Source: Bacteroidales bacterium (GTDB taxonomy: Bacteria > Bacteroidota > Bacteroidia > Bacteroidales > G3-4614). Taken from it: a stretch of DNA of 64,000 bases. The notes beneath the pieces were generated by a model. It was not told the DNA's origin. It saw only the letters and a list, made by a program, of their open reading frames with translations, and did not search any database. The DNA is taken from the NCBI GenBank assembly GCA_017521245.1, contig JAFXDI010000051.1:24162-88161 (forward strand), written 5' to 3'. The stretch's first letter is position 1, and each line of letters starts with the position of its first letter. The position numbers were made by a program, and so were the translations under genes. This document shows positions 4,231 to 52,100 of the stretch, one piece after another.

Positions 4231-4499
4231 CAGACCGCTAAAGGTTTGTAAGAATTGATAAAATACAAGGCGATTAAATTTAGGGAGAAAGAAGTGTAAA
4301 AAAGATACATAACTGAGCCCTAACAGTGGAAACAACACAGTAGTTTGTTGATTATAGCAAACCGCTAAAGGTTTGCAAGAATTGATAAAATACAAGGCGT
4401 TGAAGTTTAGGGCGAAAGGAGTGTACAAGAGGTACATGACTGAGCCCTAATACTGAAAACAACACAGTAGTTTGTTGATTATGGCAAACCGCTAAAGGT
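4231..4499. repeat. Family B repeat: 127-bp unit in tandem, 2.1 copies (4231-4357, 4358-4484, partial 4485-4499), abutting and overlapping the lrgB stop
   Basis: The units align directly. Each contains the hairpin ttagggc..tgtac..gtaca..gccctaa. The unit boundary caaaccgctaaaggt includes the last lrgB codons and the stop. A solo copy lies at 33846-33962. Confidence 0.85.
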
Positions 4500-5178
4500 A
4501 ATTCATAATACGTAATATAATTGGTGCAAACAACGAAGTCAACACTCCGTTGATTATAAGTCCTAAGGTTGCATATACCCCATGAATGGGGCTAACCTCC
4601 ATTGAGGCGGCTGTTCCTACGGCATGAGAGGCGGTTCCCATTGCCAACCCTTTTGATATATCATCGTTGAGTTTTATTATAGACATTGTTCTGTAACCTA
4701 TTACTGCTCCTAAAATACCTACGCACACAACAACTGCAGCTGTTAGTGACTCTATACCACCAAGAGCCGATGATATTTCAATCGCTATTGGTGTTGTCAC
4801 CGACTTTGGAGCAAGCGATATAATAACCTCGTTGGTTGCTCCCATAAGGTCGGCTATCGCTACAACCGATACTATTCCAACCACACATCCTGCCAATTGA
4901 GAGAGAAAGATGGGGATGAAGTGCTGTTTTATGGAGTCGAGGTGTTTATATAGAGGAACTCCCAATGCCACAATGGCGGGTTTTAACCAGAACTCAATAT
5001 ATTTTCCACCTTCGTTATAGGAGGTGTAACTAATATCGGCAAACTTCAAATAGCATATCATTACCGCAATGGTTATAAGTATTGGGTTTAGCAGTATTAT
5101 ACCTGTCTTTTTACGGATAATGGTTGCCACGTAATATACGGCAAAGGTCAGAGCGAGAAGTACAAACGTGTTATCCAT
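4492..5178 (-). CDS. lrgB: LrgB/CidB-family membrane protein
   Basis: This is a 228-aa polytopic membrane protein with the ..LAMGTASHAVGTA.. region typical of LrgB. Its start overlaps the lrgA stop by 8 nt. Confidence 0.85.
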   Translation of the reverse strand: MDNTFVLLALTFAVYYVATIIRKKTGIILLNPILITIAVMICYLKFADISYTSYNEGGKYIEFWLKPAIVALGVPLYKHLDSIKQHFIPIFLSQLAGCVVGIVSVVAIADLMGATNEVIISLAPKSVTTPIAIEISSALGGIESLTAAVVVCVGILGAVIGYRTMSIIKLNDDISKGLAMGTASHAVGTAASMEVSPIHGVYATLGLIINGVLTSLFAPIILRIMNYL

Positions 5179-5678: not shown

Positions 5679-8021
5679 TTAGATAAACATTAGTGCAATA
5701 CGATATGTTATGAAAGCAAACACCCATGCTACGCCTGTATTGTAGAGTACCGAGATGGTTGCCCACTTCCAGTTACTCTCGTTCTTAATTGCTATAACAG
5801 TTGCTATACAGGGGAAATATAGGAGTATAAACACCAGAAAAGAGAGAGCAGATGCAGTGTTAAATGCTCCGCCCGAAGCAAGTTTTTTTGACAATGCTCC
5901 TTCGCTTAACTCCTCTCCATCCTCCTCGGCATACAACACACCTAACGTACTGACAACAATCTCTTTTGCAGGTAGTCCAGAGAGTACCGCCACTGATGCT
6001 TTCCAATCCATACCGAGAGGCTCCATCACTGGCTCACAAACTTTACCTAACTGCTCCATATATGAGGTTTGAGGCTCGCCGTTACTCTTCTCGCCATGTG
6101 GGAAATAACTTAAAAACCATATCACTATTGAAGCAATAAGAATGAGACCTCCCATCTTTTTGAGATACTGTTTACACTTATCCCACATATGGCTAACGGT
6201 TGTTGCCAACGATGGCACTCTATATGGAGGCAACTCCATTACAAACGGGGTATCATCTTTCTTAAACATAAATCGGCGAAGAAGTTTTGATGTTACAACA
6301 GCCATCAATATTCCGCCTATGTAAAACAGAAATAGCACCAGTCCTGCATTGTTGGGGAAGAATGTTCCTATAAAGAGTATAAATATTGGAAGTCTTGCAC
6401 TGCACGAAATGAAAGGCGAAATCATCATTGTAATAAGGCGTGATGAGTGGCTCTCAATTGTGCGTGTTGCCATAATGGCTGGAACGTTACAACCAAATCC
6501 CATAACAAGAGGGATAAACGATTTACCGTGCAAACCTATCTTGTGCATTATCTTATCCATAATAAAGGCCGCACGTGCCAAATATCCCGAGTCCTCCATA
6601 AACGAGATAAAGAGATATAGAATCATAATGTTAGGCAAGAAGACTATCACACTTCCCACGCCACCTATTATTCCATCGGTAATAAGAGCCTTTAATATAC
6701 CTTCGGGCATAAAGTTACCAACAAAACCACTCAACCACTCAACACCTGCCTCAATCCACTCTTGCGGATATGCTCCAAGACTAAATGTGCAGTAGAACAT
6801 TAAAAACATTAGCAGGAAGAAGATAGGAAATCCCCATAGTTTATGAGTTACAAGAGTATCTATTATTCGGGTAACTAAAACTCCATCGTTTTTACCTGGT
6901 GTAAAACACTCCTTTAAAGCACCCGAAATAAATCCATATTTCTGGTTTGTTAATGCACCCTCAATATCCTCTTTCAAATCTCGCTCAATATGCTTAACCT
7001 CGTGGTCACGAATCTCAATCCACTCTTTATAATTGGGGCAACCACTTAGTTGAGCCTCAACACTTGCATCACGCTCCAATAACTTTAAGGCGTAGTAACG
7101 CGGCGGAAAGTATTTGGGCAATTGCTCACTATTGCGTTTCAACGCCTCTTTAACCTTTGACAGTCCCTCCTCAATAATACTTCCGTTATTAATGTGAATA
7201 TGACGCATTTGAGAGTTGGTATTCTCATACACCTCTATAACGGTATCTAAAAGCCACTCCACTCCTTTCCCGCTTTTTGTAGAGACAGGCACCATTGGCA
7301 CTCCTAACAAATCACCCAGTTGATTATAGTCAAGAACTGCTCCGCTACGTTCAAGTTCATCAAACATATTTAGCGAGACAACTATCTTCTCATCCATATC
7401 AATCAACTCGGTTGTGAGGTAGAGGTTACGTTCAAGATTTGATGCAACAACAGTATTTATTACAACATCGGGCGACTCGTTTTGAAGATGCTCTCTTACA
7501 TACCTCTCTTCGGGCGTATAAGCCGATAGGGCGTATGTACCGGGCAGGTCAGTTATGATGAAGTTGTAACCACGATAACGGCACTCCCCTTTCTTTGCAT
7601 CAACGGTAACACCGCTATAATTACCCACGTGTTCGTGACTGCCCGAGATTGCATTAAAGAGAGATGTTTTACCACTATTGGGATTACCTACAAGAGCAAC
7701 ATTTATCTCTCTGTTTCGTTGAGTAATAACCTCCTCTATACTCTCTTTTGAGTAGGTAGCAGTTGCTTTATCGGCAGGGATAAGGCTCTTTGCCTCCTCT
7801 TCGGTTATAACCTCAATCATAGAGGCTTCGCTACGGCGTAACGAAACCTCGTATCCCATAATCTCATACTTGATAGGATCTTGTAAAGGAGCATTAAGCA
7901 ACACCTTTACTCGCTTGTTGCGAACAAAACCCATCTCCATAATACGGCGGCGGAAACCTCCATGTCCCTTAACCTTCAATATTACGGCAGACTCTCCTGT
8001 ATTTAATTCCGATAAAAACAT
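5679..8021 (-). CDS. feoB: Ferrous iron transporter, FeoA-FeoB fusion
   Basis: The 780-aa protein has an N-terminal FeoA-like domain (~75 aa), a G-domain with GNPNSGKTSLFN and DLPGTY, and a C-terminal polytopic gate region. Confidence 0.95.
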   Translation of the reverse strand: MFLSELNTGESAVILKVKGHGGFRRRIMEMGFVRNKRVKVLLNAPLQDPIKYEIMGYEVSLRRSEASMIEVITEEEAKSLIPADKATATYSKESIEEVITQRNREINVALVGNPNSGKTSLFNAISGSHEHVGNYSGVTVDAKKGECRYRGYNFIITDLPGTYALSAYTPEERYVREHLQNESPDVVINTVVASNLERNLYLTTELIDMDEKIVVSLNMFDELERSGAVLDYNQLGDLLGVPMVPVSTKSGKGVEWLLDTVIEVYENTNSQMRHIHINNGSIIEEGLSKVKEALKRNSEQLPKYFPPRYYALKLLERDASVEAQLSGCPNYKEWIEIRDHEVKHIERDLKEDIEGALTNQKYGFISGALKECFTPGKNDGVLVTRIIDTLVTHKLWGFPIFFLLMFLMFYCTFSLGAYPQEWIEAGVEWLSGFVGNFMPEGILKALITDGIIGGVGSVIVFLPNIMILYLFISFMEDSGYLARAAFIMDKIMHKIGLHGKSFIPLVMGFGCNVPAIMATRTIESHSSRLITMMISPFISCSARLPIFILFIGTFFPNNAGLVLFLFYIGGILMAVVTSKLLRRFMFKKDDTPFVMELPPYRVPSLATTVSHMWDKCKQYLKKMGGLILIASIVIWFLSYFPHGEKSNGEPQTSYMEQLGKVCEPVMEPLGMDWKASVAVLSGLPAKEIVVSTLGVLYAEEDGEELSEGALSKKLASGGAFNTASALSFLVFILLYFPCIATVIAIKNESNWKWATISVLYNTGVAWVFAFITYRIALMFI

Positions 8022-8032
8022 AACTCCTCACA

Positions 8033-8629
8033 TTAAAATAGTGTCAGTTGACAATCAAGCAACTGAAATGATTTGCGATGATGCGGTGTAACGCCAAACT
8101 CTCTGATAGCATTGCGGTGAGCTTTGGTGGGATAACCCTTATTCTCACACCAACCATATTGAGGATACTCCTTAGCGATACCGTTCATATAGTCATCGCG
8201 ATAGGTTTTAGCAAGAATAGAAGCAGCCGCAATAGACAAAAATCTACCATCGCCCTTTACCTCGCACGAGAATGGAGTTTTTCCGTATGGCTTAAACCTG
8301 TTACCATCAACAAGAATATATTCGGGTTGCACCTTAAGTTGCTCCAATGCTCGGTGCATAGCAAGAATAGAGGCATTAAGAATATTAATTTTGTCAATCT
8401 CCTCAGCAGTTACCACTCCCACTGCCCAAGCGACAGCACTCTCCTCAATAATGGGGCGAAGTTCGTAACGCATCTTCTCCGACAGCTTTTTAGAGTCACT
8501 AATCAGTTCGTGTTCAAAGTCTGGGGGCAGAATTACTGCCGCCGCATAAACTGGCCCAGCAAGACATCCACGCCCTGCCTCATCGCATCCAGCCTCAATC
8601 ACGCCACTATTTTTATAACTCAAAAGCAT
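8033..8629 (-). CDS. rnhB: Ribonuclease HII
   Basis: The 198-aa protein carries the N-terminal catalytic motif [14 protein letters not shown]. It lies 11 nt upstream of feoB. Confidence 0.92.
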
Positions 8630-8681
8630 ATAAGAGTAACAACGAACAAGCGAAACTATCTTCGCAATTGTTTATTCTACG

Positions 8682-8689
8682 CAAAAGTA
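8682..8689 (-). promoter_or_regulatory. Candidate -7 box (TAnnTTTG on minus strand) for the rnhB-feoAB-lrgAB cluster
   Basis: The plus strand reads caaaagta, which is tacttttg on the minus strand. It sits 53 nt upstream of the rnhB ATG. Confidence 0.4.
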
Positions 8690-8782
8690 CGAATAAGCGA
8701 GCAAAATAATATCAAGTTTACTTGAATATTTTACAGCGAACAAGCAAAAAAAATACGAAGTTAGTTGAATATTTTACAAAGC
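8689..8782. repeat. Two degenerate ~45-bp direct repeats (8689-8736, 8737-8781), with a third copy of the head motif at 8642
   Basis: The units share cgaaYaagc....aagtt...ttgaatattttaca. The head motif acgaacaagcga also occurs at 8642-8653. Confidence 0.5.
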
Positions 8783-8884
8783 TGATTTCATTTGATTCTA
8801 ATATCTCTTTTTTTATATTCACGTATAAAATATTATCTACATACAATAAGTTATACTATTTTATTCGGCATCTAAAATAGATAG

Positions 8885-8917
8885 GAATCCCCAAAGTTTG
8901 GACAACCTTTGGGATTC
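8885..8917 (+). other. Imperfect inverted repeat / hairpin at the left edge of the low-GC island
   Basis: gaatccccaaag (8885-8896) pairs with ctttgggattc (8907-8917) around a 10-nt loop. It lies upstream of the putative promoter of the giant ORF. Confidence 0.5.
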
Positions 8918-8942
8918 GTTTCATATTTATGTAAATTTTTGT

Positions 8943-8950
8943 TAATTTTG
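8943..8950 (+). promoter_or_regulatory. Candidate -7 box (TAnnTTTG) for the giant ORF
   Basis: taattttg matches TAnnTTTG, about 94 nt upstream of ATG 9044, in a very AT-rich spacer. Confidence 0.3.
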
Positions 8951-9043
8951 CAACAACATACTATTACAGCATAACACCATCGTTAGGCTTATAGCTATAT
9001 ATCATGTATATTCTTTTGACCCTTTTGTAAATTTTATGTAATA

Positions 9044-12000
9044 ATGAATATCTTCAAGACTTTTATCGCTTCGTCTCTCAAAGGAGAATTTTTAAATATA
9101 AGAGAGAAATTTGCTAATGCACTTTGTTCTCTCAATAAAGATACGGAACTTGCCCCCCTGAATTTCAGTACATATAGGTTTGAAGAAGATGGCTCCAATG
9201 TTATCAATTGTGAGGGGTCGCAGAACAAAATCAATATGAAGATTGAGGAGTGTCAAGCTTTTGTAGTTATATGTAACTCAAATATTGGGAAAAAGACGGT
9301 GGAGGAGTTCCGGAGAGCACAAGAAAGGTGCAAAAGATTCCTTAATCCAACATTTATCATGGTATTGAAGCAGAGAGAGAATGTTCCTTGTGGTGAAAAT
9401 CAGATTACTTATGATAAGTTCAAGGAAGAATACCTAAAAATCTCCAGTTACAATAATGATGGTAGCATAAACAATGATTATACTATATACGAGTATGAGT
9501 TTGATGAAATAAAAGATGCTACAGATAAACTCAAGAAAGACCTTAAAGAGTGGATTACCCAAAATGACCATCGTCCACTATTTAAGGCTGAACTTGGAGT
9601 AGACGTCACTCCCTCTTTTCTTTATAAGGATGAGAGTAGGAAGGAAAAGTGTGATGAGAAAATGTATTTTAAGAGGGACTTTGATGATAAGCTCGATCAG
9701 GCGTTGATGTCAGATGAACCAGTGATTCAGATTAAAGGTGCATCGTTGTCTGGTAAGACTCGCGCGTTGTATCAGGCCATCAAGAATATTCCCGATGCTT
9801 GGTTTTACAAATTCAAGGAGCGTCATGTTGAGACAAAGCTTATTGCCGAAATAAATGAGATTGTCAACTATATTAGACCATCAAAGTGTGCTTCTCCTTT
9901 GTATCTTATATTTGATGATATTCATCAAATGCCTTCGACAGAAAATGTAAAATATGCATTGGAAGAACTGCTTGATGCTATCAAGAACAAGAATATACAT
10001 ATCATAACAACATCTACTTCTTCTGACAATATATTGTTAAGGGCTGAGAAGATCATAACAATAAAGTCATTGACAAGAAAGGAGCATAATGAGGCGGAGT
10101 TGTTCTTCAAACGTCATGGATTGACGGTAGAAAAAGGGTATCAGGAAGTAGGTGCTATGATAATTGACCTAAAAGAGATAAAAAATAATTACGAAATTTT
10201 TAGGTCAAATTCCAGGACAAATGAGAAACCTGTAAGAGAATGTCTGCTTTATGCAATAAAGGCAATGTCAATATGGCACAGTCTCAATATTGGAAATGTT
10301 GAAGAATTGTTCGAACTATCGAAATACATGCTTAAGAAAGAGGGCTATACTCAGGAGAATGAGACAAAGACAATGCTGTATGAAAGTATTAATTCTTTGC
10401 TAACACTGCCAGGAATAAGTCAAGATGGAAATGATGAGTTTAATGTATCCACATTCCATAAACTTCCCAAGTATATCAATATAGAGGAATATATATACCG
10501 TTATGTACTTGATAAGCTTACACTTAAAAAAGAACAGGAGATGATAAACTCTATTCTTGGTTATGTATCAAAGAAAAAAGATGAATCTATAATAGTTACT
10601 TTGTCCAAATTATCCCGACGTACCGAAAATAGGAAGGAGATAGCACAAAGTATTTATGACATGGTTATGGGTATATACCATAAAGAGGAAAGTCCCATTC
10701 CCGATACCTGTACAAAAGAATGGAGAGAAAAACTCAATAAGGAAATAATACAAAAACTCAATGAGGAAATAAGACAAATAGAGGAAGAGGTTACTAATAA
10801 TGATAAGAAAAGCAATGAGGAGTGTTCTGAATTGTGTATATATATGGCCAAGATTATATGGTCAAGAATGCTCTATATTGAATCTTATGATGAGGCTAAA
10901 GCTTTTTTTTATGCTGTACCGTATCCACTCCAGAGTTTACCTATGCTGGGGGTTTTAATAGTGAAGTCTTCGGGCAATCTGGAAGAACTTCAGAGGATAA
11001 TGGATAGAGATAATGTTAAAAACTCATTCTATATTATCAATAAACTGATTCCTTTTGCAACTGATTTTGATGAGGCCAATGAGTTATTAGAAAAAGGCAA
11101 ATTGCTATATACGAGTGATGACGATTATTTGGAATCATCAGATAGCCTCAGAACTCTTGTGAAAGATAAGAAGAACAATGCTGATGAGTGGAAAAGATTG
11201 AAGATAAAGGATATTGATAGATATAATTTTATCTGTGCTTTGAATAGTCTTGCCGAGAAAGTAGGGAGTTTTGATGATTTGGAGAAATTGGCTGAAGTAA
11301 TAAGAAAAAATTATGTGTTGCTTCTTGATGATCTAGATCTCGCTGAACGCTTCAAATCTGAAACAGATAACTACTCCAGAGATAAACTGACAATAATAGA
11401 CCTCATATCACGTCTGAACTTTTACGCTATCCGAGCGGCTTTCATAAATATCTTCTCATGGGGCAATTATGTTCCGTTTGAGTTATATAATCTCACCAAT
11501 AGAATAATAGAGGAGTTTATAAAGACATCAAACCTTTATACTCCTAGATATAAGTCTAAACATACAGTCTGTACAATATTTAATACGTTTATTGAGAAAT
11601 GTCATAATTGTTCATACAAGGAGGTATTTAAGGAGATTTTTCTCAAAATGAATGTACAGATGGGCAAGAAAATAATAAATCTTAGCGACTCTTTCACATA
11701 TAGCGTAATGATGAGGATGAAAGATTGCAAGTACATGGACGCTTTGGATCTATACTATAATTTCATAAAACCGCATAGCAAAGAACCAGATAGTCGTTTG
11801 AGGATTACACATTTCATGCTTAACGAGATTCTTAATAAGGTTAACACTCCCTCTGAGTTTAACAAGATAAGCAGACTCTTTGATGAGAATGATGTCTCTA
11901 AAGACGTGATTACATATAATCTGGCTATGCGTAACCTTAGTTATAAGGTATGTGTAAAGAAGATACTTCCACAGATGTGTAAGGATAATATTGAGATTGA

Positions 12001-15000
12001 TATATATACACTAGGAACACTTATATCAAAAGCTCCTAATGTGAAAGTTGCAGCAGGTTACTTCTATCCGTTGTTGGAAATTGGCATTAGAGCTGAAAGC
12101 AATATGATCGATAATACAGATGTTAAGAATAAACTAAAAGAAAAAATTGAAGACTATACAAAAAATCTACCTCTTGAAGAGCAGCATTATCTTTGGTCTG
12201 CTTTGGTGGGAACGCCCTGTAGGAATGATGAGGATAGAGAAGTACTTTTCCGTATTCTTGAATACATGGAAGATCCTAATAACAAAACACACATATTAGG
12301 TGAACATGATAACGGTATAATATATAATAACTGTATTAAGAATAGAAGCTTTATTCGCAATTTTGAGGAGGCTAAAAATTTTATGTCTTCAAAAAGAATA
12401 AAATCTGATAAATATACTCTAACGCATCTGATAAAGATTATAGAAGACGATTATAATAATTCAGGTGATTACGTACAGAAGATAACCTGTATAAATGATT
12501 TGTATCGTAAAAATAAAGAAATGATTCAATCTGAAATAGAGAAAAACAATACATATATATACAATAATCGTCTAAGGTTTTATAGATCACATGCGGATAA
12601 ATTGCAATTTGTTTTCATATTAGGTAACGGCACAACGAAAACAAAAAAACTTACACCAATGGAGTATCTAGAGTATCTGCATAATAACAATTTACCCATA
12701 GATCAATACACTTTCAGCCTTTTTGCTGGTATTAAGGATGGACAGTCTGTTGAATTGCTTGAAAACCTTATTAAATTCATAAATGAAAAAAATGAAAATG
12801 ACCTCTTTGTAAACCATTCTGCTATCGATTCTATTGTAGAAAGATTCAAGAATGTTATTCCAGAGGATAAACGTATAGATTTGCTAGAGAAAATATATGA
12901 TCTGCCAGTAAAGGATAATATCATCTCAGATGGGAAAGCAATCGTTAAGAAGTATTCTCTCGGCTTGTATACCCTAGAAAATGCATTTGATAAGATACCT
13001 GGGAATAATACTGAAAAGTTATATCTTTACACACAAATCCTCACGCAGTACAGGAAGTTTGCACTTGACTCAGATAAAAATGTTATATCGCCTAACGATA
13101 ACGAATATTCTTCATCTTTTTTTCGCTGTAAACAATTATATGATACATATGTGGTTGTTCAAAAAATTGTTCCCAATGTAGATATTCTTTCTGTTCTGTC
13201 TAACTTTGCGACTAATAAAAAAGAGCTTCAATCTGTATTTAATGAATTGGAAGAATACAGTCTTGCCCCGTCATCATATTTTATAACTTCAATATTACAT
13301 GTATCAAAGAACCTACAAGATGTAAAGGATTTACTTGGAACATATATAGAATATGGGGGTGCTAAACCAGGAAGACCTGGTTCAGAAAATGAGGTGGATA
13401 TAATATTGAGAGGTATCAATATTATATGGATGTCTACTAGAGACAACGAAATACATGAGAAGATCAGCGGATTAACGGACTATATTCTTTCTGATGCTGA
13501 TCATTGTGACGTCTTGAACGATTTCCCATGTTTCAAAATATACAAAGATAATGGAGGTTGTTTGACGCAAAAAGGATTGTGTGAATTGTTGAAATGTTGG
13601 CCTTATGGCTGTGACGACAAACAAACAACCAAAGATAAGTATATCGAAAGGCTTCAGTTGTTGTTAAGCCGATATTATAATCCCGATAATGATGAGATAA
13701 GACCAGCACTTGTAGAGTCCTTGTCTTTTGTATACAATAAACTTAGACTAGACCATGGTAGCCTCTTCTGTGCTCTTAAACCATATCCTAAGTTAGCCTT
13801 TGAGCTTGCTAAAGAAATCAATATTGATTATAATACATATAGTTTATTGGTTGAGAGTTGGAACAACGGATTTGACGAGATTTCTCAGAAAGATGCCATA
13901 GAGGTGCTCCTTGCAAAATTACAGTGTCTCCCAGAGGAAGTCCATAATGAGATATTTGATAGAATATTTGAAAAATGGGATGCCGGCATATCTGTAGCCG
14001 ATTTCCTTATGAGTAAGGATACAAATACTTTGCAGAACGCCATAAGGAATGTAGCCGAATACAAGGAAAATGATAAACTAAGGCAAAAATACTTGTCTGA
14101 CAAGTTTCAAAGACTTCGCTCATCAAATCAATATGACCCAGAACAGACAATTGCTCTGTTTGTGGATACTTTTGGGGAGGATCTATCCTATGCAGAATTT
14201 CTCGAGTCTGAATTGAAAAAACTGGATAAAAGCATTAGGATTTTTGATAACTTCAAACCTCTTCTTTATTCTGTTTCTGGCGAGAAAGAAAGCGTTATAA
14301 TCATATTATGCTATATGGCGGATAGGATTACTTCGTATAGTGATCTCTATTACATTATAGAGAATATATGTTCTGAAGAGGTGGATATCACAAAGGAGCT
14401 GGCTCAGAAAATAGTATCCAATTTGATGCAAAAAAAATATGATGATTACAAAATAAAATTTGTGGCCAATCAGATACTTACTGCAATTCATAATGACAGA
14501 ATTGTTTTAAATGATCTGCTGTATGTTCCGATATCTTTCCCTTATGAACAACTTCAGAGGCCTTTGAACTTGGATGAAAAAGAGAAATCTTTATACAGAC
14601 TGATATATAATCTCTCATCAGAAATGAATGGCTTATCATCAGATCAGATGATAATGCGAGCAGAGGAGCTTATATGTACCTATTATAAAGACAAAAGATC
14701 AAGTTATAAAGACAAAAGATCAAGAATAAATTCATTGGTGGTTCAAGAACTTGTTGGACTATATATACTCGCATACAATAAACAGAATGATAAGGAATCA
14801 AAGAATACCTTGTGTGAAAAGATAAGTAAAGTATTGTCTGTACCTTACTATTCCCACAAAAAAGATATTGAGAATTCTTGGTATAGCATGATAGATACAT
14901 CTGTACTTTTCTCTGACAAATGTAAAGCCAGACTTAACAATAGTGATAATTGGTATAAGGTGCCTTCAATTAACATATCCAGAATGCTTATGTCTTTCTG

Positions 15001-16759
15001 GGAGTGTGAGGATAAGGCAAAATTGGATATTGTATATTCCTCAGGTATACAGCATATTTGGTGGAATAATGCATATAAGGGTAATTTTGCGAAACTGTTT
15101 GATTGTTTCGAGTATGTTAAGTCAAAGCCAGAATCGCACTATGCGTTCATGAATAGTCTTTTTAATGAAGCTACTAACGGTAAAGATTTCATACAGGCTC
15201 TAAATATTCTTATATCTGAAGAAAAAACAAACTGTAATATTAATGTTGTTATAAAGACATTAATCAGTATAATATGTAAAGATACTAATTTGATAACGAG
15301 ACTATTGGAATACAATGAAAAACAGAGATCTAATAAGAACTATAAGTGGTATACTGATGCTAGTTTCTTTAATTTTGTATTTGAACAAAAATGTTTTGAT
15401 GAAAGTACAAACGTTAAATTACAAAAGATATTCGAGAAGAAATACATGAAAGCATTGTCAATATTCGTCTCGGAAATACATCTTAGGAAGTCTTTGTCTT
15501 CTTGTAAAATTCAACATTATCGACAACATGACCGAAAAGCTGTTGTAAATGAGGTTGACAAACTTATAGGCAATTATGTTTCTAATCATTCACGATATTT
15601 TGAAAAAGGTGGTAGAATTAATAATGGCTTGCTAATAGCCACATATATCAATACTAAAAGAAGTGCAACTTCAATAATTCAGAAGATTATGACACAGTCA
15701 TCATATAACTCTTCAATGCTACCTTCATGTGCTGGCTGTAATAATATCTTTACCGATAAGATGGATTATTATATTTTCAAGGAGTTAAGTTCAGAGATAG
15801 AAAAGAGGCGTTATCAATGGATTACGACACAGAAACTGTTGCATAAACTATTGTTGGCATGTGGTAATGATTTCGTATTGGAAGCTCCTCAATTGCTAGT
15901 ATTAGTTGCAAAGACTCTTAAAAATGCTGATGAATACCGCTGGTTCACAGAAGATTTGATGAAATTTTATTTACCTGTTACTCCAGAATTGACTATAGCA
16001 CTTATGGATGCCGTTATGATAATCCAAGAGAAAGAGAAGAAGAATTGGATATTGAAAAAGGTAGTTAGCAGATTAAGAGCATTGGCTGAGTATGAGCTTT
16101 GTTTTGCTGGAGATGTTTGTAAAGATTTCAAGGCTGGTTATTTCCTTTTAAGGCAAGAGCAGAATATTGATTTTGATAATTATTGGGCTAGACAACCCCT
16201 TCACATTAAAAGTAAAGTCTTCGATAATATGGTTAAAAAGATTAAGAATGCCAAATTCGATGAACGTATAAATGTAATCATGGATATAGATTCAATTATG
16301 CTTAGGTGTATGCTCTTGCTCAGATTTTATGTTGAGAACAAAGATCAATCAAAGAAAAATTTATCTGTTTTAAATAAAAAGATAAGTGATTGTTTTAAAG
16401 AATTGACTAACTTCCTTAATTCACCGGATACAGACGGTATGCAGATATCTTCACTCATCAGATTATTTAGACTTATGACGAAACATTCTATAAAAGTACC
16501 TAAAAATATGAGTGAATCAATGTTTCTAGGAGTGGTAAAATTCTATCGTAGGCAGACAGAGAATAAATTACTTGGAAACATTTATAAAATTCACGTTGAA
16601 TATGTACTGAATATAATCAAGTATATTTGTGATAGTAATCGTAGAAATGAGAAACCGAACTCAATAATATATTATAGGCTTTTTACAAACAACAAGGAGA
16701 AAAAAGAATTCCCTTACTTTGAATGTGATACAGAAACGCTTTATAATGCATTGAAATGA
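9044..16759 (+). CDS. Giant 2,571-aa cytoplasmic P-loop NTPase with STAND-like motif order, a TIR/DUF4062-like N-terminus and a very long helical-repeat C-terminus; family unknown
   Basis: The ORF is an uninterrupted 7,716 nt in AT-rich DNA, while every overlapping alternative-frame ORF in the track is under 80 codons. Motifs are Walker A GASLSGKT (nt 9737-9760), Walker B LYLIFDD (nt 9899-9919), then IHIITTSTS and ITIKSLTRKEHNEAELFFKRHG. No signal peptide or TM helix is apparent. Confidence 0.9.
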   Translation: MNIFKTFIASSLKGEFLNIREKFANALCSLNKDTELAPLNFSTYRFEEDGSNVINCEGSQNKINMKIEECQAFVVICNSNIGKKTVEEFRRAQERCKRFLNPTFIMVLKQRENVPCGENQITYDKFKEEYLKISSYNNDGSINNDYTIYEYEFDEIKDATDKLKKDLKEWITQNDHRPLFKAELGVDVTPSFLYKDESRKEKCDEKMYFKRDFDDKLDQALMSDEPVIQIKGASLSGKTRALYQAIKNIPDAWFYKFKERHVETKLIAEINEIVNYIRPSKCASPLYLIFDDIHQMPSTENVKYALEELLDAIKNKNIHIITTSTSSDNILLRAEKIITIKSLTRKEHNEAELFFKRHGLTVEKGYQEVGAMIIDLKEIKNNYEIFRSNSRTNEKPVRECLLYAIKAMSIWHSLNIGNVEELFELSKYMLKKEGYTQENETKTMLYESINSLLTLPGISQDGNDEFNVSTFHKLPKYINIEEYIYRYVLDKLTLKKEQEMINSILGYVSKKKDESIIVTLSKLSRRTENRKEIAQSIYDMVMGIYHKEESPIPDTCTKEWREKLNKEIIQKLNEEIRQIEEEVTNNDKKSNEECSELCIYMAKIIWSRMLYIESYDEAKAFFYAVPYPLQSLPMLGVLIVKSSGNLEELQRIMDRDNVKNSFYIINKLIPFATDFDEANELLEKGKLLYTSDDDYLESSDSLRTLVKDKKNNADEWKRLKIKDIDRYNFICALNSLAEKVGSFDDLEKLAEVIRKNYVLLLDDLDLAERFKSETDNYSRDKLTIIDLISRLNFYAIRAAFINIFSWGNYVPFELYNLTNRIIEEFIKTSNLYTPRYKSKHTVCTIFNTFIEKCHNCSYKEVFKEIFLKMNVQMGKKIINLSDSFTYSVMMRMKDCKYMDALDLYYNFIKPHSKEPDSRLRITHFMLNEILNKVNTPSEFNKISRLFDENDVSKDVITYNLAMRNLSYKVCVKKILPQMCKDNIEIDIYTLGTLISKAPNVKVAAGYFYPLLEIGIRAESNMIDNTDVKNKLKEKIEDYTKNLPLEEQHYLWSALVGTPCRNDEDREVLFRILEYMEDPNNKTHILGEHDNGIIYNNCIKNRSFIRNFEEAKNFMSSKRIKSDKYTLTHLIKIIEDDYNNSGDYVQKITCINDLYRKNKEMIQSEIEKNNTYIYNNRLRFYRSHADKLQFVFILGNGTTKTKKLTPMEYLEYLHNNNLPIDQYTFSLFAGIKDGQSVELLENLIKFINEKNENDLFVNHSAIDSIVERFKNVIPEDKRIDLLEKIYDLPVKDNIISDGKAIVKKYSLGLYTLENAFDKIPGNNTEKLYLYTQILTQYRKFALDSDKNVISPNDNEYSSSFFRCKQLYDTYVVVQKIVPNVDILSVLSNFATNKKELQSVFNELEEYSLAPSSYFITSILHVSKNLQDVKDLLGTYIEYGGAKPGRPGSENEVDIILRGINIIWMSTRDNEIHEKISGLTDYILSDADHCDVLNDFPCFKIYKDNGGCLTQKGLCELLKCWPYGCDDKQTTKDKYIERLQLLLSRYYNPDNDEIRPALVESLSFVYNKLRLDHGSLFCALKPYPKLAFELAKEINIDYNTYSLLVESWNNGFDEISQKDAIEVLLAKLQCLPEEVHNEIFDRIFEKWDAGISVADFLMSKDTNTLQNAIRNVAEYKENDKLRQKYLSDKFQRLRSSNQYDPEQTIALFVDTFGEDLSYAEFLESELKKLDKSIRIFDNFKPLLYSVSGEKESVIIILCYMADRITSYSDLYYIIENICSEEVDITKELAQKIVSNLMQKKYDDYKIKFVANQILTAIHNDRIVLNDLLYVPISFPYEQLQRPLNLDEKEKSLYRLIYNLSSEMNGLSSDQMIMRAEELICTYYKDKRSSYKDKRSRINSLVVQELVGLYILAYNKQNDKESKNTLCEKISKVLSVPYYSHKKDIENSWYSMIDTSVLFSDKCKARLNNSDNWYKVPSINISRMLMSFWECEDKAKLDIVYSSGIQHIWWNNAYKGNFAKLFDCFEYVKSKPESHYAFMNSLFNEATNGKDFIQALNILISEEKTNCNINVVIKTLISIICKDTNLITRLLEYNEKQRSNKNYKWYTDASFFNFVFEQKCFDESTNVKLQKIFEKKYMKALSIFVSEIHLRKSLSSCKIQHYRQHDRKAVVNEVDKLIGNYVSNHSRYFEKGGRINNGLLIATYINTKRSATSIIQKIMTQSSYNSSMLPSCAGCNNIFTDKMDYYIFKELSSEIEKRRYQWITTQKLLHKLLLACGNDFVLEAPQLLVLVAKTLKNADEYRWFTEDLMKFYLPVTPELTIALMDAVMIIQEKEKKNWILKKVVSRLRALAEYELCFAGDVCKDFKAGYFLLRQEQNIDFDNYWARQPLHIKSKVFDNMVKKIKNAKFDERINVIMDIDSIMLRCMLLLRFYVENKDQSKKNLSVLNKKISDCFKELTNFLNSPDTDGMQISSLIRLFRLMTKHSIKVPKNMSESMFLGVVKFYRRQTENKLLGNIYKIHVEYVLNIIKYICDSNRRNEKPNSIIYYRLFTNNKEKKEFPYFECDTETLYNALK

Positions 16760-16860
16760 TACATCTCTTTCATTTAGACTAAGGATGTCTACAATGATAC
16801 AACTATATGGGAGAGTACTTAAGGAGTGAGATGGTGAGGTGTAGTAATTCTCTACACCAC

Positions 16861-17167
16861 CTCTCTTATCCAAAGAAAATGTATGCCATAAATATGGCTG
16901 CAACTATACCAATAAAGTCGGCAATAAGACCAACTCCTGCGGCATAACGGCTGTTTTTAATACCAACCGAACCAAAATAGACGGCAAGTATATATAGTGT
17001 GGTATCGGTTGAACCCTGAATGGTAGAGGCAACACGAGCAACAAATGAATCGGCTCCGTATGTAGCCATAGCATCAACCATCATACCTCTTGCTCCACTT
17101 CCGCTAAGGGGCTTCATGAGTGCGGTGGGAATAGTTCCAACAAAGTCGGTATCAATACCACAAGCGA
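16861..17167 (-). pseudogene. 3' fragment (last ~100 codons plus stop) of a spmAB-like nucleoside-recognition membrane protein gene; duplicate of 22653-22959
   Basis: Manual alignment to 22653-22959 (offset 5,792) gives 9 mismatches in 307 bp. The last 83 codons are identical at protein level. No 5' part of the gene is present. Confidence 0.85.
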
Positions 17168-17457
17168 TTGAAATATCATCGGCTCTTGGCGGTATAGAGT
17201 CACTAACCGCAGCAGTTGTTGTGTGCGTAGGTATTTTAGGAGCAGTAATAGGTTACAGAACAATGTCTATAATAAAACTCAACAATGATATATCAAAAGG
17301 GTTGGCAATGGGAACAGCCTCTCATGCAGTAGGTACAGCAGCCTCAATGGAGGTTAGCCCTATTCATGGAGTATATGCAACCTTAGGTCTTATAATCAAT
17401 GGAGTGTTAACTTCGTTTTTTGCACCAATTATACTACGTATTATGGGCTACCTATAA
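17165..17457 (+). pseudogene. 3' fragment (last ~97 codons plus stop) of an lrgB gene, inverted relative to the full lrgB at 4492-5178
   Basis: Manual alignment to the reverse complement of 4492-4784 gives about 20 mismatches in 293 nt and only 3 aa changes (D>N, L>F, N>G). Similarity continues about 25 nt past the stop, to about 17482. Confidence 0.85.
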
Positions 17458-17500
17458 CGGTTTGCCATAATTAACAAACCTATTTGGGTAACTAAAATAA

Positions 17501-17535
17501 ACAGATAAGGGATGCTAATAGCACCCCTTGTCTGT
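17501..17535 (-). terminator. Hairpin terminator downstream of the efflux operon
   Basis: acagataagggatgc pairs with gcaccccttgtctgt (imperfectly). On the minus strand it is followed by ttattttag, 16 nt after the MFS stop. Confidence 0.55.
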
Positions 17536-17550
17536 TGTAAAATATTAAAA

Positions 17551-19143
17551 CTAAAATTGCTTATCTGCTTTATCCATACGTAGTTGATGTTTAATGTATC
17601 GGCGAATAGTTCTATATTTAGGGTGTATTGCAAAGGTGGGGCGTAGCGAACTCTCTCGCAACAAGTATATCATCAATGTTCCCAATCCAACAAGAATAAG
17701 CCATCCAAATATCTCTTTCATACTAACGGCAATAGCCTGAATTTGTACAATGCCGTAGAGTTCTCCAAGCGAGAAGTTCTTTGCTAAAACATTTACATTA
17801 TCAATCTCGCTACCGAGTAACATACTATTCTTGCATACCAATACTTTAAACAGACGTCCAACAATTGCCTCACCAAAAGCACTCGCTATGGCAGCACTAA
17901 AGAAACCTTGAATTGATACTGCCTGAAAAAAGTTGGTAAATGGTATTAACGAGAGGGCTGTAAGCAGAGTGATTGAGAGTATCACAAACCCAATGCTTCG
18001 TGCCAATATTGGCAATATAAGAGCCTCTTTAGGGAGATTAAAATCAACTACAAAGTAGAATAAAATCAAATACAAAACCAAGAATGAGAAACCAATAGTT
18101 GTCATAGTTTTGTATCTCCATTTGCGGATAGCAAATGTTCTCCAAGAGAAGAATGCTCCTATTGCAATACCCGCCAATGCCCATAGTTTCATTGATGCAA
18201 TGTTAAGTGTATCGTAGTGTAGTATCACTCCCATATACATCTCCTCTAACACGCGTGATGGAGCGTTAAGAGTTGATATTACAAGATATATAATTAGTGA
18301 ATAGTAGAGAGGTTTAAACCTCCACGTTTTAAGTTCGTAGAAGGGGTGGCGAATAAATGATGAACGCCAAAGATTAAGCCCCAATGTAACAATAGCGGTG
18401 ATAAGAGCCGTCCATATTACAGGAGAGTTAAACCAGTCGTAGAAGTCGCCATATACCATTATAAACACTAACGATAATGCAACTGTACACCACAACAATA
18501 TACCCACCCAATCAATACCAAAAAGTGGAAGTTTTGGAAGTGTTCTAATTGTACGGAATATAATTATAGTGGTAATTATAACTATCAAAAAGAGTCCTAT
18601 AACCAAAAGATACATATACTCCCATTTGGCAAAGAAAGCGGTGTATATGGTGGTAATTCCTCCAATCTCAATCATGCCCTGCACAAGTAACTCAATGTAG
18701 CAGAAGAATACCGACAAATCGCGTTTTGGAGTGAGCCATAACTGAATAGCAGAGTTGCACCCAAACGTTCCCCACATTCTAAATATACCTGTAATAAAGC
18801 ATACCCCAAACATAAGAGGAACACTTGAAGTGTTTACTACAATAATGTTACCAATGATTATTGCAGAGGAGCAGATAATAAAGGTCTGTTTCAGTGGAAA
18901 TCTGAACTTCAGCCTAAACATTATGGCAAAGGTTAGAGCAAGTCCTGCCAATGAGGCGTAACCTGCCATAAGAATATCCTCTCGCATAAGAGCGAGCGAA
19001 CCGCTCATTTCGCCTAACGCTGCAAGATATACACCTCCTGAAAGTTGAAAAACAATAACAAAGGCAATTATTATCCAAGGACGTATCTTCTCTGGAATAA
19101 AATTGCGAAATTCAGGAAGTGAAAAGGGTGGAATCTCGTGCAT
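17551..19143 (-). CDS. MFS efflux permease, DHA2/EmrB-like (about 14 TM helices)
   Basis: This 530-aa, highly hydrophobic polytopic protein is the last gene of a TolC-HlyD-MFS operon. Confidence 0.8.
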   Translation of the reverse strand: MHEIPPFSLPEFRNFIPEKIRPWIIIAFVIVFQLSGGVYLAALGEMSGSLALMREDILMAGYASLAGLALTFAIMFRLKFRFPLKQTFIICSSAIIIGNIIVVNTSSVPLMFGVCFITGIFRMWGTFGCNSAIQLWLTPKRDLSVFFCYIELLVQGMIEIGGITTIYTAFFAKWEYMYLLVIGLFLIVIITTIIIFRTIRTLPKLPLFGIDWVGILLWCTVALSLVFIMVYGDFYDWFNSPVIWTALITAIVTLGLNLWRSSFIRHPFYELKTWRFKPLYYSLIIYLVISTLNAPSRVLEEMYMGVILHYDTLNIASMKLWALAGIAIGAFFSWRTFAIRKWRYKTMTTIGFSFLVLYLILFYFVVDFNLPKEALILPILARSIGFVILSITLLTALSLIPFTNFFQAVSIQGFFSAAIASAFGEAIVGRLFKVLVCKNSMLLGSEIDNVNVLAKNFSLGELYGIVQIQAIAVSMKEIFGWLILVGLGTLMIYLLRESSLRPTFAIHPKYRTIRRYIKHQLRMDKADKQF

Positions 19144-19149
19144 AATTTA

Positions 19150-20184
19150 TTAGTAATTAACTATACATTCGGCATTCATTCCTGCTCTTAAACGAGCCAT
19201 ATCATCTGCTTTGTTATCATCGGTAAAGATGATTTTCACTGGGATACGTTGTTCAATCTTTACAAAGTTTCCTGCAGAGTTATCTTGTGGAAGAAGTGAG
19301 AAACTTGCTCCAGTTGCCTGAGATACTGACTCTACAACTCCCTTAAACACTACATCGGGAACAGCATCGACCTCAATCTCCACTTCGTTGCCAACTGATA
19401 TGTTTGCAGTTTGAGTCTCTTTGTAGTTTGCAATTACCCACTTTGAACCACTATCAACAAAGTCGGTAATAGTTTGTCCTGGTTGTATAAGTTGTCCAAC
19501 TTGAATCTTCTTGCGGCCTGTAACACCATCGCAGGGAGCAATAATAACAGTGTATGAGAGGTTTAGTTTTGCCAAATCCAAAGCAGCCTCTGCTAAACGG
19601 ATGGCAGCCTCAGTTTGGTTAAGTCTATCTCCTTGCTCGGCCTTAACAAGGACGGTTGATTGACGCTGACTCTTTAATGCCTCGTAGCGTTGTTTAAGAG
19701 CAACATAATTTGTCTCCATTGCATCAAATTGTTGTTTTGTTACAGCATCATTCTCAAACAAATTCTTATAACGGATATAATCTCTTTCGGCATTCTCCAT
19801 ACGCACCTTTGCCTCTGCAACAGCAGCATCACCCGCCTCAATATTGCTTGAAGTGGTATTTATTGCAGTAGCCATTGCCGATTTCCCCGAAACTGCATTA
19901 TAGTAGTCTGCTTCGGCTTGTGCTAAACGGAAACGAAATTCCGAATCTTCAATAATGGCAAGAGTGTCGCCCTTCTTAAACTCTTGATACTCCTCAAAAC
20001 GAATATCTTTAATAAAACCCTGAACTCGCGAGTTTACAGGAATAATATGTTGTTTTACCTGAGCATTGTCGGTAAACTCAACACTACCCAAATGAATAAA
20101 TCTACTTGCAACCCATGTCAATCCTAAAATTAAACACGCAAGAACAACAATATTAAAAATCAGTTTTTTACTTTTCTTATTCAT
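19150..20184 (-). CDS. HlyD/EmrA-family membrane fusion (periplasmic adaptor) protein
   Basis: The 344-aa protein has an N-terminal TM anchor, a central coiled-coil-like region and a C-terminal beta-rich region. It sits between the TolC-like and MFS genes. Confidence 0.85.
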   Translation of the reverse strand: MNKKSKKLIFNIVVLACLILGLTWVASRFIHLGSVEFTDNAQVKQHIIPVNSRVQGFIKDIRFEEYQEFKKGDTLAIIEDSEFRFRLAQAEADYYNAVSGKSAMATAINTTSSNIEAGDAAVAEAKVRMENAERDYIRYKNLFENDAVTKQQFDAMETNYVALKQRYEALKSQRQSTVLVKAEQGDRLNQTEAAIRLAEAALDLAKLNLSYTVIIAPCDGVTGRKKIQVGQLIQPGQTITDFVDSGSKWVIANYKETQTANISVGNEVEIEVDAVPDVVFKGVVESVSQATGASFSLLPQDNSAGNFVKIEQRIPVKIIFTDDNKADDMARLRAGMNAECIVNY

Positions 20185-20216
20185 AATTTTTATCTATTTC
20201 TCTGTAAAACAATCTA

Positions 20217-21530: not shown

Positions 21531-21697
21531 ATTAAGAGTTTAAAATTTATATATCTAAATGGGCGATGAAATGTGAGTAAAAAAAAGAAAAATATCCCCT
21601 TTCAAAAATTGTTGCAAAGGTCGCAAAAAAGCCTCAAAAACTACATTGCTCAAAATATACAAAATTGGTTTAATTTGAACATTTAAATAAATAATAT

Positions 21698-21705
21698 TAC
21701 CTTTG
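21698..21705 (+). promoter_or_regulatory. Candidate -7 box (TAnnTTTG) for the AraC-family regulator
   Basis: tacctttg matches TAnnTTTG, 42 nt upstream of ATG 21747. Confidence 0.45.
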
Positions 21706-21746
21706 TATAGAAGTTGCGTGAGTAAATAAATAGGTTAGAAAAGAAT

Positions 21747-22649: not shown

Positions 22650-22657
22650 AGGCTCTC

Positions 22658-23890
22658 TTATCCAAAGAAAATGTATGCCATAAATATGGCTGCAACTATA
22701 CCAATAAAGTCAGCAATAAGACCAACTCCTGCGGCATAACGGCTGTTTTTAATACCAACCGAACCAAAATAGACGGCAAGTATATAAAGTGTGGTATCGG
22801 TTGAACCCTGAATGGTAGAGGCTACACGAGCAACAAATGAATCGGCTCCGTATGTAGCCATTGCATCAACCATCATTCCTCTTGCTCCACTACCGCTAAG
22901 GGGCTTCATGAGTGCGGTGGGGATAGCACCAACAAAGTCGGTATCAATACCACAAGCGGCAACTACGTAGGTTATCCCCTCAGTCAAAAAATCCATTGCT
23001 CCAGATGCCCTGAACATTGCAATGGCAACTAACATTGCAATAAGGTAGGGGATAATAGTAACAGCGGTCGTAAATCCCTCTTTTGCTCCGTCAATAAATG
23101 CTTCATAAACATTTATCTTTTTTCTGACACCTGCCACCAAAAAGAGTATTATAATTGTAAAGAGCAACATATTTGCTCCAACGGTAGAGTAGAGCGAAAC
23201 CTTTTCTGCTGGTAAATTCATAAAGAAGGCTAACAACCCTCCCATAATGGCAGTGGCAATAGTTACGGTAGATATTATAACTCTGTCAAAAATGTTTATT
23301 CGTTGCTTTATGCAGGTTATTAACAATCCTGCAAGAGTTGTAATGTATGTAGCAAGCAGAATAGGTAAAAACACGTCCGAAGGGTTTCCTGCTCCCATCT
23401 GCGCTCTATATACCATTACGCTTATCGGTATAAGAGTTAGTCCTGTGGTGTTAAGCACCAAGAACATTATCATTGCATCGGTTGCTCTCTCCTTTTGAGT
23501 GTTCAACTCCTGCATCTCCTTCATTGCTTTAAGACCAAGAGGAGTTGCGGCGTTATCAAGTCCCAGCATATTTGCCGAGAAGTTCATAAATATTGAGCCG
23601 AATATCGGACTATCTTTTGGTATTGAGGGAAATAGTCTTGAGAAAAACGGTGATACCCAACGGGCAAATATTGAGATAATGCCTCCGCGTTCTCCGATCT
23701 TCATCAAACCAAGCCATAGCGACAACACTCCAGTTAACCCAAGAGATATTTCAAATGCGGTTTTTGCCGATGAGAAAGAGGAGTTCATAATCTCTGACCA
23801 CACATTCACGTCCCCCATAAAGATACTCTTTATGAGTGCTACTGCAAAAGCAATAAAGAAGAACGATATCCAGATATAATTAAGTACCAT
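22658..23890 (-). CDS. Nucleoside-recognition (Gate) domain membrane protein, SpmA/SpmB-like fusion
   Basis: The 410-aa polytopic protein has an N-terminal half that is SpmA-like and a C-terminal half that is SpmB-like. The assignment is from recollection. Confidence 0.7.
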   Translation of the reverse strand: MVLNYIWISFFFIAFAVALIKSIFMGDVNVWSEIMNSSFSSAKTAFEISLGLTGVLSLWLGLMKIGERGGIISIFARWVSPFFSRLFPSIPKDSPIFGSIFMNFSANMLGLDNAATPLGLKAMKEMQELNTQKERATDAMIMFLVLNTTGLTLIPISVMVYRAQMGAGNPSDVFLPILLATYITTLAGLLITCIKQRINIFDRVIISTVTIATAIMGGLLAFFMNLPAEKVSLYSTVGANMLLFTIIILFLVAGVRKKINVYEAFIDGAKEGFTTAVTIIPYLIAMLVAIAMFRASGAMDFLTEGITYVVAACGIDTDFVGAIPTALMKPLSGSGARGMMVDAMATYGADSFVARVASTIQGSTDTTLYILAVYFGSVGIKNSRYAAGVGLIADFIGIVAAIFMAYIFFG

Positions 23891-33546: not shown

Positions 33547-33845
33547 AAAATTTTATTGTTAATTGAGGTTCGTTAATAGTGAATAAAGTATGAGAGAGAA
33601 TAACTCTATTCAGGTAAGTTTTACGGAGCAAAGGTATAGTGCTTTTTATGAAATCTCCTTCATAAAGAAGCTCTCTATCAGTTTGTCAACCGATAAATAT
33701 TTTTTGGGGATTAATAAATATAAAGGATAGTTTGTGAGTTTGCAATATATATATATATTAAATACATTGATGAGAAAATAAACTTAATATTTTACGAATA
33801 ATAAGAGGCTGTGTCAAAATGTAAATTTTGGCCCAGTCTCTTTTA

Positions 33846-33962
33846 GGTGTGTAAGAATTGATAAAATACAAGGCGTTGAAATTTAGGGCGAAAGAAGTGT
33901 ACAAGAAGTACATGACTGAGCCCTAATATTGAAAACAACACAGTAGTTTGTTAATTATGACA
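33846..33962. repeat. Family B repeat, solo copy
   Basis: It aligns over about 117 nt with the units at 4231-4484, in the same orientation, and contains the hairpin ttagggcgaaagaagtgtacaagaagtacatgactgagccctaa. Confidence 0.8.
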
Positions 33963-34102
33963 CATCGTCACCTCATACTTGCTATTAGGTTTGCTGATTT
34001 TAACATATTAATTATACAGATATATTTGTACCTATTATATATATGCCTTAATTGAGACATAAACCAACAAGAGCGAAGAAGTAAGCATCATCTTTTGTGA
34101 TA

Positions 34103-52092: not shown

Positions 52093-52100
52093 AATTCTTA

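Follow-up and report, generated by a model that had tools for sequence, protein, structure and literature searches.

A giant NLR-like gene in a lineage-specific AT-rich insertion upstream of rnhB: a candidate NIR-Avs-like protein and its proposed gain by illegitimate recombination in Bacteroidales

How does a single very long gene, with nothing beside it that could move it, come to lie between rnhB and an efflux operon in a Bacteroidales chromosome, and what might it do there? We address this for positions 8630-16860 of a 64,000-nt stretch of DNA from an uncultured gut Bacteroidales bacterium (assembly GCA_017521245.1, contig JAFXDI010000051.1, positions 24,162 to 88,161 of the forward strand), the whole of which we call the window. 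The main interest of the segment is the giant gene itself, an open reading frame (ORF) at 9044..16759 on the plus strand whose 2,571-aa product, from the ORF call and its homologs, reads as an NLR-like STAND NTPase. The explanation that we favor, with moderate confidence, is that this is a lineage-specific single-gene insertion which encodes a divergent NIR-Avs-like abortive-infection protein and which was gained by illegitimate recombination.

The segment was singled out by its base composition. An earlier reading made from the letters of the sequence (hereafter the sequence-only reading) had described it as more AT-rich than its flanks, and sliding profiles of GC content and tetranucleotide usage agree: GC is 0.328 at 8630-16860 against 0.396 in the remainder of the window, of all 8.2-kb windows the one from 8751 onward is poorest in GC (0.329; all-window mean 0.385, standard deviation 0.019), 1-kb bins run at 0.31-0.355 over 9001-17000 between flanks of about 0.38-0.44, and the tetranucleotide distance to background is 0.024-0.032 within the segment and 0.011-0.022 elsewhere, a difference of about twofold. 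The ORF listing likewise bears out that the segment holds the one giant ORF and a 414-nt AT-rich leader (GC 0.273) and nothing more. Codon usage, which that reading had named as a further check, deviates in overall GC, the giant gene standing at 0.330 (z = -2.6 against 35 other genes), but the deficit falls chiefly on the first two codon positions (z -1.6 and -2.2), with GC at position 3 (GC3) at 0.323 versus a mean of 0.370, only 0.96 standard deviations low. The protein is enriched in L, K, I, E, N, Y and F, and its homologs in hosts of 43-50% GC lie 3-7 points under their neighbors through positions 1 and 2 while GC3 follows the host. The AT-richness is thus largely a trait of the giant protein family, arising from amino-acid composition, and because the homologs show the same offset at positions 1 and 2 while following host GC3, composition is weak evidence of foreign origin. 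The sole other compositionally distinct region of the window, 50000-64000, contains a minus-strand ribosomal-protein-like cluster with an AT skew of -0.2 to -0.27 and a raised tetranucleotide distance, presumably tied to high expression.

Comparison of the rnhB-to-permease interval across relatives, a step that the sequence-only reading had pointed to, reveals an island. The nearest genomes are uncultured Bacteroidales or Candidatus Caccoplasma-like metagenome-assembled genomes, and the island occurs, its junctions identical, in four assemblies of independent origin (the window, which is an ENA metagenome scaffold, and L002, L011 and L101), is absent from the three closest relatives (L015, L021 and L010, at about 91-96% DNA identity), and has left no trace of the giant gene at the locus in the outgroups L016-L020. 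The second strain, L101, matches the window at 97.6% identity over 8711-16889, a divergence of 2.4%. L015, L021 and L010 have one gene order, g34743-GNAT-rnhB-feoB-lrgA-lrgB, placed tail-to-tail with permease-HlyD-OEP-AraC-spm. At the same site upstream of rnhB, L021 carries a different gene (7807-8664 of that sequence) for a 285-aa signal-peptide protein with a Leptospira LA_0442-like N-terminal domain, and because of this other cargo we read the site as one that appears to be a recurrent variable spot.

The insertion lacks the marks of a mobile element. Its neighbors in the window (lrgA, lrgB, a feoAB fusion, rnhB, a divergent DHA2-like permease with HlyD and OEP, an AraC-type regulator and a Gate-domain, spm-like gene) are all housekeeping genes, with no integrase or transposase among them; no integrase, transposase or relaxase fragment was found in or near the island; the sole tRNA of the window is tRNA-Val at 31236, leaving no tRNA target at the island; and comparison of the two island ends revealed no terminal repeats, direct or inverted, above chance. 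Because mobility machinery, a tRNA target and terminal repeats are all missing, this is not a classical mobile island, and on this point the tRNA, profile and end-repeat searches agree with the sequence-only reading.

The right junction is more informative. The island ends at 16860, and 16861 is exactly where a duplicated spm fragment begins, as had been claimed. This first piece of a scar (16861..17166, minus strand, 300-306 nt) duplicates the 3'-terminal part of the spm-like gene, and within it an ORF at 16866-17117 gives a Pfam Gate match; it is 97% identical to its source in the native gene (22653..22958, minus strand) 5.8 kb downstream, so that the two form direct repeats on either side of the efflux operon. 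The second piece, missed by the sequence-only reading, is a 339-nt lrgB 3' fragment (17141..17479, plus strand) in the ancestral position and orientation beside the permease gene. Its counterpart in an inverted repeat, I1, is the 3' end of full-length lrgB (4470..4808, minus strand; 92% identical), which lies 12 kb upstream in the opposite orientation, and because full-length lrgB occupies the same spot beside the permease in relatives, the fragment is a relic of ancestral adjacency. The two pieces overlap by about 26 nt (17141..17166, AAAGTCGGTnnCAAnACCAnnAGCG), a stretch found by alignment in both source genes and imperfectly shared between them. A chimeric junction with microhomology, as we read this one from its alignments, is a signature of illegitimate recombination, and the anatomy as a whole fits capture by illegitimate or replication-based recombination with templated insertions, followed by repeat-mediated inversion, not mobile-element integration. 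Of the proposal that foreign DNA entered by homologous or illegitimate recombination, then, the lineage-specific island and the illegitimate-recombination scar stand, whereas composition as proof of foreign origin does not.

The gene order around the island is also rearranged, with the rnhB-lrgB block inverted relative to L015, L021 and L010. Inverting the DNA between 4470-4808 and 17141-17479 would restore the arrangement rnhB-feoB-lrgA-lrgB next to the permease, and one further inversion, of the whole block against the GNAT side, would then explain the difference from L015, suggesting that the locus was reshaped by at least two nested inversions. An S1 protein look-up, directed at the far side of the larger inversion, matched island-bearing strains only. 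The scar also speaks to age: with 2.4% divergence of the island from strain to strain, and scar fragments that differ by 3-8% from their genes of origin, the insertion is not a recent one. The two lrgB arms are 92% identical to each other and either is about 90% identical to relatives; a mosaic (foreign) arm in this inverted repeat was considered and rejected, since both arms and all relatives are about 90-92% mutually identical. The spm fragment matches its native source at 97%, and fragment or native copy matches relatives at 93%, such that the spm copies may have exchanged sequence since duplication.

On the left, the island is shorter than had been proposed. Positions 8630..8740 align to L015 (87%) and to L021 up to 8740 and are native rnhB upstream DNA outside the island, so the claimed extent of 8630-16860 holds at its right edge and fails at its left. 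An imperfect tandem duplication of promoter-proximal rnhB sequence, with a period of 43 nt, spans 8700..8778 (about 8700-8735 and 8743-8778); it was read from the sequence, received no score from TRF, and is restricted to the island-bearing lineage, L021 being short by exactly 43 nt and L015 homology stopping at 8740, exactly between the two copies. Pairwise alignment shows that 8741..8877 is common to L021 and not to L015, and it appears to be older local sequence at the variable spot. Because homology to L015 ends at 8740 and that to L021 at 8877, the island-specific DNA runs from 8741 or 8878 to 16860. Within it, the leader proper (8878..9043, plus strand) lacks homology in L015 or L021, and a 3' untranslated tail (16760..16860, plus strand) is conserved in L101 and has no similarity to DNA left of 22653. 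Logan contigs that end 90-165 nt upstream of rnhB were considered as a sign of polymorphism and rejected, as the ends coincide with the 43-nt duplication and the D1 repeat, where k-mers break. An exact 29-mer from the rnhB upstream segment found no match in JGI metagenomes.

What the giant gene encodes is a protein with a three-part layout, an N-terminal effector-like domain, a central STAND NTPase and a C-terminal helical region. The first is an alpha/beta domain (aa 1-185; 9044..9598, plus strand) of TIR-like or DUF4062(NIR)-like character, modeled with a predicted local distance difference test (pLDDT) score of 79. Foldseek matched the model to SPARTA TIR-APAZ (8i88, 8isy, 8spo), the CMP N-glycosidase BcmB (4jen, TMt 0.70-0.74), the plant RPS4 TIR domain (4c6r) and NDT (7o62), and to viral deoxyribosyltransferases as well, so the predicted fold is a TIR-like parallel beta-sheet with TIR-APAZ and CMP hydrolase as structural neighbors. 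DUF4062 (PF13271) is the commonest Pfam match among N-domains of the family, seven of the 12 matching at E<=1 with a best E of 1.5e-4, all under the gathering threshold. An exhaustive profile search with the N-domain returned 1,393 proteins at E<=1e-3, and next after the giants come proteins that combine the N-domain with NACHT or NB-ARC and TPR regions, with DUF4062 scores of 20-23 bits (intermediates 20-22.6) against a threshold of 24.7. The N-domain looks DUF4062-like but falls short of formal DUF4062 membership. Its Glu88 is invariant, and the model places it where the helix that follows strand 3 begins.

The P-loop NTPase core (aa 225-345; 9716..10078, plus strand) matches AAA_14 with an E of 4.9e-7 on the segment and carries intact motifs, a Walker A of GASLSGKTR (aa 232-240) and a Walker B of DD (aa 291-292), with G232, K238, T239, R240 and D291/D292 invariant or nearly so in 12 relatives at identities down to 27%; the P-loops of relatives give weak nSTAND3, nSTAND5 and NACHT matches. 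Helical and winged-helix modules of STAND type follow (aa 346-600; 10079..10843, plus strand; model pLDDT 81.6). Searched with Foldseek, the AlphaFold model of aa 1-600 (pLDDT 81.6) gave SAMD9, EfAvs5 (SIR2-STAND), the AVAST5 filament, MalT and CED-4 as top matches, with E-values of 4e-8 to 6e-6; the template modeling (TM) scores are low, those to the Avs5 and SAMD9 structures being 0.24-0.33 because of multi-domain flexibility, and sequence identity to these two is 10-14%. The remaining region of about 1,970 aa (10844..16756, plus strand) is low in Pro and Gly, helical, and has weak PPR-like motifs, PPR_2 matching the query at aa ~954-995 with an E of 0.042 and the corresponding stretch of the relative P0030 scoring 30.9 bits against a threshold of 30. 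No repeats within the giant protein emerged from self-BLAST, profile scans detected no DNA-binding output domain, and profiles of the N-terminal 600 aa, the N-domain and three C-terminal segments found no sequence relatives in the PDB. By analogy, the C-terminal region is the presumed sensor.

The giant gene is maintained and fast-evolving at the protein level. Between the window and L101 the ratio of nonsynonymous to synonymous substitution rates (dN/dS) is 1.11 (120 nonsynonymous and 26 synonymous differences), compared with 0.03 for feoB, and it varies along the gene from above 2 in codons 1-250, 501-750 and 1251-1500 to 0.1-0.2 in codons 2001-2500. The reading frame is intact in the second strain, all five indels between the strains being in-frame, and a neutral simulation puts the expected number of stops at about seven (P(no stop)=0.0005). 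Immune receptors are often fast-evolving.

Homologs of the giant protein form 31 clusters among 5.8 billion proteins, all with the N-terminal domain. Mostly they are single genes amid housekeeping genes, for example between miaA and an SH3 gene, or between OmpA and an aminoacyl-tRNA synthetase gene. Some keep other company: ThsB-like TIR genes lie near homologs in L095, L114 and L116, the homolog in L104 sits at a prophage edge, and further surroundings include WD40 or AAA+ genes, a PARP-like gene and RyR neighbors. We also note recurrent neighbors of homologs (L095, L102, L106, L109 and L096), namely SH3/PARP-like proteins of 467-471 aa, AAA+ proteins of 1,083-1,352 aa with AAA_lid_6, and RyR-domain proteins; in certain lineages such proteins could act as accessory partners, and the window has none of them.

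There is a known class of proteins that such an architecture recalls. DUF4062 (NIR) is a TIR-like NADase that serves as the effector of Avs2-type and other NLR-like defense proteins, with conserved catalytic glutamates at E108 in PsAvs2 and E97 in KpSwz (bioRxiv 10.64898/2026.09.04.749371; bioRxiv 10.64898/2026.05.01.722283), and the structural neighbors of the PsAvs2 NIR domain are TIR-APAZ and CMP hydrolase (Le Mouellic et al., bioRxiv 10.64898/2026.09.04.749371). Because DUF4062(NIR) effectors of NLR-like proteins thus have the same structural neighbors as our N-domain, NIR-Avs is the closest known analogue. PsAvs2 and the giant protein share a single-gene organization with a TIR-like DUF4062-type N-domain, a STAND NTPase and a C-terminal helical region that in the giant protein is a presumed sensor, as well as the SPARTA TIR-APAZ and CMP hydrolase neighbors; the conserved Glu after the third beta strand may be a further common feature. 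The giant protein, known here from sequence and models, differs in an N-domain that falls under the Pfam DUF4062 threshold, in being about twice as long (2,571 aa), and in having weak PPR-like motifs in place of clear TPR repeats and no match to a PADLOC Avs model. Avs5/SIR2-STAND and human SAMD9 (9jap, 9nc9, 9zjv) are the best whole-model matches, and they too place an alpha/beta effector-like domain ahead of a STAND P-loop and helical modules, although their N-domains are SIR2-type and that of the giant protein is TIR/NIR-type. Swarozyc (KpSwz) has a DUF4062 NADase that depletes NAD+ upon sensing a phage protein (Osinski et al., bioRxiv 10.64898/2026.05.01.722283); the modeled giant N-domain can be likened to its TIR-like fold with a catalytic Glu, whereas Swarozyc has neither a STAND NTPase nor a giant sensor and is activated by assembly with the phage portal. 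As a locus, the insertion resembles defense islets at variable hotspots without mobility genes, in that a single defense-like gene between conserved housekeeping genes varies among relatives, with alternative cargo in L021, but differs in that its junction keeps a scar of microhomology-joined fragments, whose source genes lie at distances of 5.8 and 12 kb, alongside nested inversions.

By analogy with these systems, the giant protein is probably an anti-phage sensor and abortive-infection defense protein. In such a scheme the C-terminal region, like those of NIR-Avs and other Avs or NLR-like proteins, would bind a phage-derived ligand, the STAND module would drive NTP-dependent oligomerization and so cluster the N-domains, and the assembled N-domains would hydrolyze NAD+ or a related nucleotide and so abort the infection. 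The gene itself would have been captured upstream of rnhB by illegitimate or replication-based recombination without a self-mobile element; capture would have left two templated fragments of nearby genes joined at microhomology, the rnhB-lrgB block would later have inverted between the two lrgB 3' copies, and the island would have been inherited vertically thereafter.

Several observations weigh against this proposal. At the level of sequence, the query scores 13.7 bits against DUF4062 (E 0.077) where the gathering threshold is 24.7 bits, and its DUF4062 and TIR_2 matches, both about 14 bits, are far under Pfam thresholds; at the level of structure, the N-domain Foldseek E-values are modest (2.6e-4), Ras-like flavodoxin folds are among the matches, and Glu88 is a putative equivalent of the TIR/NIR catalytic Glu. 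No PADLOC defense model was matched, with mad8 (E 8e-4) and PDC-S01 (E 0.018) the only hits and both partial, and the window copy has no defense-gene neighbors. The dN/dS rests on just those 26 synonymous differences, and its distribution runs opposite to the one usual for Avs proteins, the N-domain being among the fastest parts and constraint being strongest over the last ~570 aa. With regard to the capture, the order of events is one of parsimony, and the scar fragments are of unequal apparent age (3% vs 8% divergence), which would require gene conversion or two separate events.

Four other explanations have to be set against these facts. A non-immune role is unlikely but has points in its favor, the protein being in this case a STAND-type regulator or scaffold, such as a MalT-like signal-transduction ATPase, whose TIR-like fold serves to bind nucleotides or process nucleosides: the structural matches include MalT, no known defense model matches, the window copy is solitary beside housekeeping genes, and the N-domain also resembles nucleoside 2'-deoxyribosyltransferases. 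Against it, no DNA-binding output domain is detected; the family is patchy and rare at 31 clusters, TIR, PARP-like and prophage neighbors recur around it, and a dN/dS of about 1 with a kept frame is atypical of regulators. That same ratio of 1.11 is what would suggest a decaying, functionless remnant in neutral evolution, which we regard as very improbable given a 7.7-kb AT-rich frame that is open in both strains with five indels in multiples of three (P(no stop)=0.0005 under neutrality), Walker motifs and N-domain residues that are invariant across relatives at 23-95% identity, and a dN/dS of 0.1-0.2 in the C-terminal 570 aa.

The two remaining alternatives concern the origin of the island. 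If the giant gene were ancestral at the locus and lost in relatives, its low GC would merely reflect protein composition, in keeping with a GC3 that is not deviant, with an island old enough for 2.4% divergence between strains, and with the sharing of the 8741-8877 part of the leader with L021; we hold this to be improbable, as no trace of the gene remains at the locus in L015, L021, L010 or the outgroups L016-L020, the three relatives have a single order while that of the window is derived and bears a scar where the island ends, and homologs occupy unrelated contexts in other genomes. The island could also be the stranded cargo of a once-mobile element (an integrative and conjugative element, prophage or transposon) whose mobility genes and ends were later deleted or separated by inversions. 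One homolog does lie at a prophage edge, several rearrangements at the locus could have removed element ends, and small D2 repeats occur at the rearrangement junctions, but the island and its surroundings are free of integrase, transposase and relaxase fragments, of tRNA genes and of terminal repeats, and most homologs elsewhere are also solitary amid housekeeping genes, and we consider this quite unlikely.

Some further features of the locus are described for completeness. In the leader lie a hairpin at 8885-8920 and, at 8943-8950, the Bacteroidetes -7-like motif TAATTTTG, for which the chance rate is about 0.7 per kb; the predicted RNA fold of the leader is not significant (z-score -0.8), an Rfam scan of 8000-18000 at E<=1 returned just two chance eukaryotic matches and no family in the leader, and a sigma-70 promoter and terminator scan (56 sites vs 45.5 expected) is uninformative for a Bacteroidales genome. 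The hairpin, at the left edge of the island, holds the 17-mer CCCCAAAGTTTGGACAA, which recurs inverted in an L015 hairpin at ~13700-13760 in the lrgB-permease spacer and may belong to a small palindromic repeat family. Next to the scar, the gene at 17551-19143, labeled MFS in the sequence-only reading, has no Pfam match at E<=0.01 and a 17-bit match to EmrB/DHA2 over most of its length, and is a highly divergent permease within a HlyD-OEP efflux operon that is typical in other respects. The D2 repeat is a ~127-nt unit flanked by ~30-nt direct repeats (GTTTGTTAATTATGGCAAACCGCTAAAGGT), which overlap the lrgB stop codon, and it is found at rearrangement junctions, with copies in the window (4242-4364, 4369-4491 and 33845-33967), in L010 (8695-8809) and in L015 (8521-8684 and ~13560-13690). 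Downstream of lrgB it is present twice in the window, once in L010 and L015, and not at all in the scar, where the site is empty, and it may be an element resembling a miniature inverted-repeat transposable element or one prone to slippage. A separate 5,933-nt contig, L012 (ENA ERZ27256848 k141_1705231), has a 141-nt terminal overlap that yields a 5,792-bp circular path equivalent to 16861-22652 of the window; this consists of permease-HlyD-OEP-AraC and the scar, closed across the D1 direct repeats with a scar-type repeat copy, and may represent tandem amplification of the efflux operon, its excision as a circle, or a loop made by the assembler.

A bolder proposal, speculative and in our judgment rather unlikely, is that gut Bacteroidales possess a family of giant NIR-like NLRs (about 2,000-2,700 aa), so far undescribed, of which this gene is the founding member. 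The helical, non-periodic and weakly PPR-like region of about 2,000 residues would then be a new type of sensor, possibly for nucleic acid or multiple ligands; the selection pattern, with rapid change in the effector and near the NTPase and a constrained C-terminus, would stem from a way of recognizing phage or evading counter-defense that sets these proteins apart from known Avs proteins; and the scar would record the capture of such genes, without mobility genes, through replication-based template switching. To our knowledge, the defense genes of gut Bacteroidales are poorly catalogued, and the giant gene family is invisible to current defense-finder profiles. The locus offers unusually clear forensic evidence of a single defense gene, if such it is, entering a chromosome without a mobile element, in that the scar and the nested inversions document the capture event itself and not just its outcome, and scar anatomy of this kind helps to recognize defense islets that are missed by composition- or integrase-based island finders. 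If the protein is indeed a NIR-type NADase NLR, the reach of the DUF4062/NIR effector, newly described in 2026 preprints, would grow to include a far larger and more divergent protein build from a phylum dominant in the gut.

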